DNA of 9,024 bases from a virus. Below, one piece after another: positions 1,932 through 2,984 of this stretch. The stretch lies in UHGV virus genome UHGV-0305646; one strand, written 5' to 3'. Position 1 is the first letter of the stretch. The number at the start of each line of letters is the position of its first letter. Both the position numbers and the translations under genes were made by a program. Under the pieces are notes generated by a model. It was not told the origin of the DNA. It worked only from the letters and a program-made list of their open reading frames with translations, and searched no databases.

Positions 1932-2984
1932 GTGATCGATTGGCTTACCGGGATTTTCCCTTGCACACACAAACCGCTTCCGGCGGGGAGTGTTGTCAGC
2001 GTTGATGCTGACGGTGCAATTGAGTGGGAAACCGTTAAGCGACTGACTGTTCGCGGTTCGCATGAAGCAACGATGAAAGTACGATCGATAGGATCTAATG
2101 GCGAAGGTAAAGCGACACATTTGTACATTGATGGTAATCCTTCCAAGTTTCTGCAGGGGCATTCTGTTGTTGGGTCGGATGATATACAAGGGCTCATGTT
2201 GACGGTCTATGCCAGGATTTTATCCTTATTGAATATTCCTCATGATTTAGCGTCTTATAAAGCCGTTATGGCAGGTCAGTATAAAATTTCACGTATTGAC
2301 ATTAATTACATGTATTCATTATCTACGCTGGAAAATGTCAGATCATGGCTTTATGCCGCCGAATTTAAAGCTAAAACACGCCATGGTCGCGCATGTGGGA
2401 AAGGCGGTACAGTTTATTTAGGTAAAAACTCCCGTCGATGGAGTCTGAAATTTTATTCAAAATATGATGAACACGTTTCTGGTAAAAAAGGGCACCAGAT
2501 AGCCGAAGAGTTTGTACGAGCCGGGTTACTGGACTGGACGAAAGATAAATTACGTATTGAATTAACATTAAGAACAACTGAGCTTATTGATTTAAATTTA
2601 ACGCTTGGCGCTAACTGGAATATGAAAACACCACGTCAATTATTCTCTGAATATGTAGGGAGAATAGAAATGAATCAGAATGCTATTTTAAGTGATGAAA
2701 AAATAACGAAACTGCCAAGAAAAATACAGTCAACTTATTTACTTTGGAAACAAGGGGCTAACATGAAAGAAATGTTACCTCATAACACTTTTTATCGCCA
2801 TAGAAGAGAATTGCTTTCGTTCGGTATCGATATTAATTTCTATTGTGATTCACCAGACTCTAATAACGTTGTTCCGCTAATAAGAACGCTGGAAGCCAAG
2901 CCAGCGGAAATCCCCTTATGGATTTATGAGAAAGGTTTTATTTTCGATTACAACCGTATTTCGCACGCCAGTAGCTGGCATTAA
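1932..2984 (+). CDS. Rolling-circle replication initiator (filamentous-phage gene II / RstA-type Rep)
   Basis: Track ORF 1890-2984; GTG at 1932 is in frame and preceded by GAGGA at 1920-1924 (7-nt spacing), whereas the 1890 ATG has no SD. Motif TVYLGKNSRRWSLKFYSKYDE resembles the catalytic Tyr region of this Rep family. First gene of the + strand block, as gene II is in Ff. Confidence 0.7.
   Translation: MIDWLTGIFPCTHKPLPAGSVVSVDADGAIEWETVKRLTVRGSHEATMKVRSIGSNGEGKATHLYIDGNPSKFLQGHSVVGSDDIQGLMLTVYARILSLLNIPHDLASYKAVMAGQYKISRIDINYMYSLSTLENVRSWLYAAEFKAKTRHGRACGKGGTVYLGKNSRRWSLKFYSKYDEHVSGKKGHQIAEEFVRAGLLDWTKDKLRIELTLRTTELIDLNLTLGANWNMKTPRQLFSEYVGRIEMNQNAILSDEKITKLPRKIQSTYLLWKQGANMKEMLPHNTFYRHRRELLSFGIDINFYCDSPDSNNVVPLIRTLEAKPAEIPLWIYEKGFIFDYNRISHASSWH
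2670..2984 (+). CDS. Candidate in-frame internal product of the Rep gene (gene X analogue)
   Basis: Internal ATG at 2670 preceded by AGGGAG (2657-2662) at 7-nt spacing; would encode the C-terminal 104 aa. An alternative ATG at 2622 has no SD. Proposed by analogy with Ff gene X only. Confidence 0.2.
   Translation: MNQNAILSDEKITKLPRKIQSTYLLWKQGANMKEMLPHNTFYRHRRELLSFGIDINFYCDSPDSNNVVPLIRTLEAKPAEIPLWIYEKGFIFDYNRISHASSWH

Follow-up and report, generated by a model that had tools for sequence, protein, structure and literature searches.

In the Ff phages (M13, f1 and fd), the replication protein pII combines a Phage_CRI N-terminal domain with a G2P_X_C C-terminal domain, the latter being also produced from an internal gene X. 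Tyr197 of M13 pII is the residue that becomes covalently joined to the nick, which is made at 5780/5781 (PMC5405960, citing Asano 1999 for the tyrosine). CTXφ RstA, the RepC and RepD proteins of the pT181 family and RepSTK1 belong to another family, Rep_trans (PF02486), and have neither a G2P_X_C domain nor a gene X. The Rep_trans motifs are N' (D), I (RxD), II (T/SxY/ExG), III (YxKxxE) and IV (W/LxRxE), and similar motifs exist in Phage_CRI, M13 included (Carr et al. 2016, PMC4797284; Wawrzyniak et al. 2017, PMC5714925). For the Yersinia phage Ypfφ, a review assigned YPO2274 and YPO2275 to replication; disruption of YPO2274, the Rep gene, abolished phage production (PMC4266046). The present locus belongs to the UPφ phages, whose genes II and V share more than 85% identity with their Ypfφ counterparts while the rest is IKe/I2-2-like; Shapiro & Putonti (2020) called the split between UPφ901 and Ypfφ modular and saw in it the reflection of recombination (PMC7307601).

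The DNA analysed here (9,024 nt, called the window below) represents a single unit of a filamentous prophage (Inoviridae), lying on the + strand with the Ff gene order (Table 1). Its positions 1-123 are identical to 8452-8574, so that it begins inside the preceding tandem copy. It shares the UPφ layout: tandem copies integrated at dif, a pair of additional ORFs behind gene IV, and ORFs on the reverse strand beyond dif. The likeness to UPφ901 was judged from the published description (PMC7307601); sequences were compared with two prophages, designated L006 (in E. coli SCPM-O-B-12142) and L007 (in E. coli A4), and with others named below. A preliminary description of the region had noted Ff-like morphogenesis genes, and genes V, VII, IX, VIII, III, VI, I and IV do follow gene II with an Ff-like order and content. 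Our overall conclusion, held with high confidence, is that the 1932-2984 gene codes for a pII of the Phage_CRI/G2P type with a gene X start, and that it sits on an exchangeable module (about 1069 to 3321) joined to the Lineavirus-like backbone of a dif-integrated UPφ prophage.

Table 1. Features of the 9,024-nt window.
Feature	Position	Strand	Remarks
Phage dif-like site GGTGCGCATAA-TGTAGGACTCG-TTATGTTGAAA	109..141	+	Junction with preceding tandem copy
140-aa predicted membrane protein	1069..1491	-	Leftmost gene of exchangeable module
Putative plus-strand origin	1534..1579	+	Hairpin 1534-1562 and adjacent palindrome 1564-1579
60-aa putative ribbon-helix-helix (RHH) protein	1580..1762	-	Divergent from gene II
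Divergent control region	1763..1931	.	169 bp between regulator and gene II; candidate operators
Gene II	1932..2984	+	Rolling-circle replication initiator; Phage_CRI N-terminal and G2P_X_C C-terminal domains; I2-2/Ypfφ subtype
Gene X	2670..2984	+	In-frame internal start in gene II; 104 aa, C-terminal part of pII
Gene V	2996..3313	+	ssDNA-binding protein of PF17426 'Putative_G5P' type, not Ff/IKe PF02303
Assembly backbone, Lineavirus-like (IKe/I2-2-like)	3316..7792	+	Pfam and PHROG matches, RefSeq annotation
VII	3316-3402	+	
IX	3402-3497	+	
VIII	3517-3759	+	
III	3806-5083	+	
VI	5083-5424	+	
I	5425-6519	+	
IV	6527-7792	+	
Packaging-signal hairpin	7782..7841	+	Inverted repeat right behind gene IV
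Two UPφ-specific ORFs	7862..8521	+	102 aa at 7862-8170, 77 aa at 8288-8521
Exact E. coli dif (attR side)	8560..8587	+	

Gene II is an ORF of 350 aa starting with GTG, 7-8 nt downstream of a GAGGA ribosome-binding site; the identical CDS found in E. coli genomes is labelled 'phage/plasmid replication protein, II/X family' in RefSeq. Its product (Rep) had been thought at first to be an initiator of the RstA/Rep_trans type, unlike Ff pII. The profile searches placed it instead, from end to end, in the family of Ff pII: 235.4 bits for Phage_CRI (PF05144; 8.8e-70, profile positions 2-231 of 232, cutoff 21.7), 102.4 bits for G2P_X_C (PF05155; 2.1e-29, cutoff 25) and 258.6 bits for the NCBIfam model TIGR01629 rep_II_X (cutoff 29). 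The match to Rep_trans was confined to residues 156-231 and, at 17.3 bits (E = 0.0038), fell below the gathering cutoff of 29.6; neither M13 nor I2-2 pII gave this weak match. As controls, the pII proteins of M13, IKe and I2-2 were assigned to Phage_CRI plus G2P_X_C (261 bits on Phage_CRI for M13), and CTXφ RstA to Rep_trans and nothing else (68.3 bits). The 120 best database homologues of Rep all carry PF05144, nearly always together with PF05155.

Pairwise comparisons went the same way. By BLASTP, Rep is 56% identical over its full length to the pII of I2-2 (Lineavirus I22, NC_001332; 344 aa against 350, with a common gene X start, E = 1e-151) and collinear with M13 pII (23% identity over 324 columns, E = 5e-7); the pairwise alignment with IKe pII gave 24% identity (E = 4e-6). 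No similarity to CTXφ RstA was detected by BLASTP (best E = 2.0), and hhalign returned a probability of 0.06% when RstA was compared with a pII profile of five sequences; such a profile is too shallow for remote homology, and folds were compared instead. A tblastn search with Rep among 50,697 phage records, at an E-value limit of 1e-3, retrieved I2-2 and one metagenomic inovirus without reaching M13 or IKe, and no relative was obtained when the PDB was searched by sequence. Identity to Ff pII being as low as 23%, Rep is assigned to the Ff family on the strength of profiles, conserved motifs and collinearity. Rep and Ff pII have the same Pfam domains in the same order and share an N-terminal MID, PxKxLQGH, RxD, SR...YxKxxE, RxE and, in the X domain, NVVPL; Ff pII differs in being 60 residues longer, as a result of insertions, and in its degenerate motif II (TVTWN versus TVYLG). 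As judged from its sequence, Rep therefore belongs to the family of M13/Ff pII, with the same two-domain architecture, and not to that of RstA; within that family it is a member of a short (about 345 aa) I2-2/Ypfφ sublineage, approximately 23% identical to Ff and IKe pII.

The two motifs that had suggested an RstA-type protein are indeed present, GTVYLGK at residues 159-165 (nt 2406-2426) and KFYSKYD at residues 173-179 (nt 2448-2468), and correspond to catalytic motifs II (TxYxG) and III (YxKxxE). The complete set in Rep consists of D3, R121-I-D123, T160-V-Y-L-G164, Y175-S-K-Y-D-E180 and R208-I-E210. Among 32 homologues, with identities down to 42%, T160, G164, Y175, K177 and E180 were invariant or nearly so, and D3, D123, Y175, K177, E180, R208, E210 and M247 were found in 32 out of 32; the motifs are thus not due to chance. 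Tyr175 (codon 2454-2456), the predicted catalytic residue, falls on M13 Tyr197 both in the BLASTP alignment, where KFYSKYDE faces AYLKHVE, and in the multiple alignment. The motifs also fit the Rep_trans consensus, down to the 15 residues separating T160 from Y175, as T176 from Y191 in RepD (PMC4797284). Moreover, the predicted model of Rep displays the crescent-shaped beta-sheet catalytic fold seen in Rep_trans, and its best structural matches are Rep_trans crystal structures. However, motifs II and III are common to Rep_trans and Phage_CRI, M13 included (PMC4797284, PMC5714925), and for that reason they cannot separate RstA-type from Ff-type initiators: the resemblance of Rep to Rep_trans sits at the superfamily level and extends to Ff pII as well. 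The view that Rep is an RstA/Rep_trans-type initiator, acquired, along with a lysogeny regulator, from a phage similar to CTXφ, can draw on the sub-cutoff profile match, on the motifs and fold, and on the divergent repressor located 5' of the rep gene as in rstR-rstA, but it is refuted at the family level and deserves practically no credence, given that Rep has the G2P_X_C domain and the gene X start that RstA lacks and that the next gene encodes a G5P-type ssDNA-binding protein and not an RstB partner. What was corrected here is a plausible misclassification: motifs that look 'RstA-like' are the signature of the non-HUH Rep_trans/Phage_CRI superfamily.

The ATG of gene X is preceded by GGGAGA; the corresponding Met247, invariant as mentioned above, aligns with the annotated start of I2-2 gene X, and PHROG 17464 matches this stretch. 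From these sequence features pX is predicted to be made from the internal start at 2670. The gene V product is 39% identical to I2-2 pV and 92-93% identical to the pV of L006 and L007, but without similarity to M13 and IKe pV by BLASTP; the Pfam families divide likewise, PF17426 for the window and I2-2, PF02303 for M13 and IKe. If Rep functions as Ff pII does, it would bind the origin of the supercoiled replicative form and nick the + strand in the loop of a hairpin by means of Tyr175, with formation of a 5'-phosphotyrosine link, D3, D123 and E210 making up the putative metal site. It would then religate the strand after one round of rolling-circle replication, and pX, along with the gene V ssDNA-binding protein, might subsequently tip the balance toward progeny ssDNA.

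The homology pattern along the window is that of a mosaic. The products of genes VIII, III, VI, I and IV are 51-73% identical to those of both IKe and I2-2, and 35-54% to those of M13 (BLASTP); gene II is 56% identical to I2-2 and about 23% to either IKe or M13. In L007, whose backbone is of the Ypfφ/CUS type and unrelated to that of the window, II (87%), V (93%) and the 140-aa ORF (99%) are shared, and beyond these three only a faint pIV similarity (27%) was seen; L007 stands here as a proxy for Ypfφ/CUS-1, in place of the Y. pestis sequence. In L006 the backbone is of the UPφ type (81-95% identity to the window), and II and V are 96% identical to those of L007. The 140-aa ORF is 96-99% identical in L006 and L007, in spite of the unrelated backbone of the latter. 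The borders of the conserved segment are sharp and placed at gene boundaries: on the left around 1069, the stop codon of the 140-aa ORF, and on the right around 3321, in the first codons of gene VII. The exchangeable module (about 1069-3321) thus comprises the 140-aa membrane protein, the origin-like hairpin and palindrome, the regulator/operator cassette, II/X and V. We also considered the window as a CUS-1/Ypfφ prophage, and rejected this: II, V and the 140-aa ORF alone match that backbone, and the window is a UPφ.

Could the same pattern result from faster evolution of II and V within a single vertical Ff-like lineage, without any module exchange? Quick divergence is frequent in replication proteins, and Rep is homologous to Ff pII over its whole length. 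Such a scenario is nevertheless very improbable in view of several comparisons. Between IKe and I2-2, identity amounts to 76-93% for III, VI, I and IV and to 69% for VIII; it drops to 23% for II, and their V genes are unrelated, whereas the pII proteins of IKe and M13 are 60% identical to each other. The pV of the window is not even in the Pfam family of Ff/IKe pV. The same II/V pair (87-96% identity) is carried by two unrelated backbones, those of L006 and L007, with homology stopping at gene borders, and one Salmonella prophage joins a Rep of the I2-2 type to a pV of the Ff type. Module exchange remains our conclusion. The preliminary description had proposed a swap of replication and lysogeny control onto an Ff-type assembly backbone, and it was right in that the replication/control region differs in ancestry from the IKe/Ff-like backbone; the II/V mosaic is already known for the UPφ group (PMC7307601), where such a finding is ordinary. 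Our independent computations thus confirm the published modular structure of the UPφ, I2-2 and Ypfφ phages and provide, as a usable by-product, the exact borders of the exchangeable replication module. Two small additions to the published work concern the region upstream of gene II: a swapped regulator cassette, and a hairpin-plus-palindrome of Ff-like layout, conserved and probably serving as the origin.

The 60-aa ORF divergent from gene II gave no match in Pfam and NCBIfam; the putative RHH protein that it encodes is probably a repressor or immunity regulator. The control region contains direct repeats of TGAACTCA at 1810, 1834 and 1881, together with a TGAACTAC repeat at 1873, and scanning 1450-2000 for promoters revealed no sigma-70 consensus. 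Homology between the window and L006 DNA extends over 1062-1575, is then interrupted, and restarts exactly at 1933, which is base 2 of the gene II initiation codon: regulator and control region constitute a swapped cassette (1576-1932) of their own. In place of the 60-aa RHH protein, L006 and L007 have a 148-aa protein of the HTH_3/CI type; Ypfφ-type phages likewise carry a 148-aa HTH (RstR-like) regulator, and YPO2273 of Ypfφ, at the same position 5' of the Rep gene, has been described as RstR-like (PMC4266046). I2-2 retains a remnant of the small RHH ORF (43% identity over 35 aa, E = 5e-9), frameshifted in the database record. A divergent repressor 5' of a Phage_CRI Rep is in fact a common layout, encountered in Salmonella, Pseudomonas and Pseudohongiella prophages. 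The phrase 'replication and lysogeny control' in the preliminary description was therefore reasonable, with the qualifications that the regulator is itself a swapped cassette and that its function as a repressor is deduced. Such a polymorphism in a likely immunity cassette could control whether UPφ and Ypfφ/CUS-type phages that circulate together exclude one another from superinfection.

The candidate origin lies just beyond the regulator gene. Its hairpin has a 12-bp stem and an AGGTA loop included in a conserved G-T-R-A-T-A-C (fold of the DNA at -15.8 kcal/mol, z = -5.8), and its palindrome reads GTACCA-TTCG-TGGTAC, against a GTCTCA palindrome in L006 and L007. Along with the packaging signal, these are the sole conserved blocks when the window is compared with the I2-2 intergenic region (841 bp), in which a hairpin GAACGTGCAGTGTA[T/G]GTAATACTGCA occupies the same place. 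Each phage unit of the E. coli and Salmonella loci has a single copy of the hairpin, and divergent versions are found 5' of Reps 44-50% identical to ours in P. aeruginosa, Pseudomonas sp., Pseudohongiella, Shewanella and Amphritea. In a set of 10 loci, ranging from E. coli to Pseudomonas and Shewanella, 91.7% of cells were paired and 8 of the 18 pairs showed compensatory changes, the structure having been derived from the same 10 sequences as those used for this count; none of 500 shuffles attained these values, and shifted registers gave at most 52%. The G-T-R-A-T-A-C on the 3' side of the loop was invariant. The M13 origin, although unrelated in sequence, has the same layout, a nick hairpin, AGTCCAC-GTTCTTT^AATA-GTGGACT, followed by a 6-N-6 palindrome, GTTCCA-AAC-TGGAAC. 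By analogy with M13, the nick is predicted to occur at T1549/A1550. We infer that 1534-1579 is probably the replication origin.

The main rival to this proposal is a role in transcription: 1534-1579 would be an intrinsic terminator acting in both directions, or some other regulatory structure, insulating the regulator gene. The location of the structure, directly 3' of the regulator ORF, and the A/T runs on either side of the 1534-1562 stem speak for such a role, and the covariation, while backing the pairing, does not tell a function in DNA from one in RNA. We nevertheless regard it as rather unlikely. From E. coli to Pseudomonas, the loop and stem-edge bases (G-T ... G-T-R-A-T-A-C ... A-C) are invariant, for which a terminator has no need; the element is kept in I2-2 even though the regulator has a frameshift there, and in the Shewanella locus L013, which is devoid of a divergent regulator. 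Furthermore, the second palindrome displays compensatory changes on both arms, the layout parallels that of the M13 origin, and a terminator scan made no call at 1534-1579.

Returning to the origin proposal, we tentatively extend it, in a form that we consider possible but somewhat short of probable. Gammaproteobacterial inoviruses with a short pII of the I2-2 type may share a hitherto undescribed bipartite origin, and in the enterobacterial ones that integrate at dif the stretch going from origin to gene II may be a hot-swappable immunity cassette. The origin would consist of a hairpin whose loop edge, GT-R-ATAC, is invariant, followed by a 6-N4-6 palindrome with co-varying arms, in a layout homologous to that of Ff; the cassette would be either the 60-aa RHH protein with TGAACTCA operators or the 148-aa CI/RstR-like HTH repressor. 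If this is true, cassette types would define heteroimmune groups, as rstR alleles do for CTXφ. The candidate origin, with its predicted nick site, is a testable by-product.

Outside the module, the window resembles I2-2 and differs from it in several respects. In its packaging hairpin, GGGTAGGTGCGTGAGCCCTGC corresponds to what is annotated as the 'morphogenetic signal' in I2-2. I2-2, however, is an IncI-pilus phage that does not integrate, and it has neither the dif-like site, nor the h1 and h2 genes, nor the reverse-strand accessory genes of the window. The two ORFs following gene IV match PHROGs 4115 and 5435 (unknown function); they are presumably the h1 and h2 of Shapiro & Putonti, in agreement with their position (PMC7307601). 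Neither they nor the 140-aa ORF had a match in Pfam and NCBIfam. Between the dif-like site and gene II, the reverse-strand ORFs include a 'mobilome CxxCx11CxxC' protein in addition to the 140-aa and 60-aa ORFs.

A search for plasmid matches revealed none for positions 190-1065; the many obtained with the window trace to a 72-bp element (132-203) and to the right flank. A circular Salmonella record of 7.9 kb, 98.9% identical and covering 81% of the window, seems to represent an episomal form. Prophages 99% identical to the window occur, among others, in E. coli UM146 and C10, and the Rep gene was present in 54 of 5,426 complete E. coli genomes. As prophages of E. coli, uropathogenic strains included, the UPφ, I2-2 and Ypfφ phages are clinically common.

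Sequence comparison of the UPφ window with L006, the prophage of E. coli SCPM-O-B-12142 that has a UPφ-type backbone, indicated that the regulator and operator region was replaced as one cassette (coordinates of this and the other features are collected in the Table). The borders of the replacement are exact, with the origin-like element on one side and the gene II start codon on the other. The window cassette encodes a 60-aa RHH protein as its regulator, whereas phages that are otherwise related have a 148-aa HTH_3/CI-type protein instead; this swap is reminiscent of the rstR heteroimmunity alleles of CTXφ. 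A frameshifted homologue of the RHH ORF lies upstream of gene II in the I2-2 record (L003): either the gene has decayed to a pseudogene in this phage, which does not integrate, or the frameshift is an error of early sequencing.

The origin-like element that borders the cassette is bipartite, a hairpin followed by a palindrome. Its substitutions are compensatory, and the GTRATAC at the edge of the loop is invariant. It travels with the Rep lineage across Gammaproteobacteria and its layout mirrors that of the M13 origin.

Coordinates of features in the window and in related loci
Feature	Sequence	Position	Strand
Hairpin-plus-palindrome	Window	1534-1579	
Hairpin-plus-palindrome	L003 (I2-2)	2666-2712	
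Hairpin-plus-palindrome	L008 (Salmonella GCA_033493255.1)	1887-1935	
Hairpin-plus-palindrome	L010	1958-2005	
Hairpin-plus-palindrome	L012-L015		
Regulator and operator cassette	Window	1576-1932	
Regulator and operator cassette	L006	7368-8000	
Frameshifted RHH homologue	L003 (I2-2)	2720-2918	minus
Rep with Ff-type pV	L008	1978-3837	
HTH regulator, Rep and 91-aa ORF	L012 (Pseudohongiella spirulinae)	882-4029	
Region folded as ssDNA	Window	100-215	
dif-like XerC arm	Window	109-121	
Segment paired with XerC arm	Window	191-203	
72-bp palindromic element	Window	132-203	
About six tandem GGGES repeats, within gene III	Window	4380-4520	
Integrase gene, 3' part (right flank past dif)	Window	8588-9024	minus

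Other arrangements of gene II were found. In the Salmonella prophage L008, where the regulator is a 130-aa HTH protein, a Rep of the window subtype (74% identical) sits beside an Ff-type pV (PF02303); even genes II and V can therefore be exchanged separately from each other. In several Klebsiella and E. coli proteins (P0016, P0017, P0032-P0035 and P0037), a secretin domain is fused to Phage_CRI, in some cases together with G2P_X_C; these proteins probably arose by deletions in prophages of this kind that joined gene II to gene IV. A minimal unit, made up of an HTH regulator, Rep and a 91-aa ORF, is present in L012 as two tandem copies about 2.4 kb apart, the intervening DNA being devoid of assembly genes, and may be an RS1-like satellite element. 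The Salmonella enterica record NZ_CP140410.1, a circular 'plasmid' of 7,938 bp, matches 81% of the window at 98.9% identity and carries a Doc-family toxin gene in its accessory region; it appears to represent a UPφ phage in its episomal replicative form.

Folded as ssDNA, the region around the phage dif-like site gave -30.7 kcal/mol (z -7.4). The XerC arm is paired with a downstream segment and GTTATGTT with AGCATAAC, pairings that set an inverted, degenerate dif-like site opposite the phage one; the predicted fold resembles the forked attP(+) hairpin of CTXφ. The 72-bp palindromic element has matches of about 93% in several hundred conjugative plasmids, mostly from E. coli. These fall in unannotated DNA, and the one in pCERC3 adjoins an STM4504/CBY_0614-family gene.

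Gene III of the window and that of E. coli strain C10 differ in length by 39 bp, in agreement with the repeat-number variation already described (PMC7307601). On the right flank, the site-specific integrase gene, which also occurs on plasmids, lies next to dif in some E. coli strains but not in all; fimA or different DNA is found there in others.
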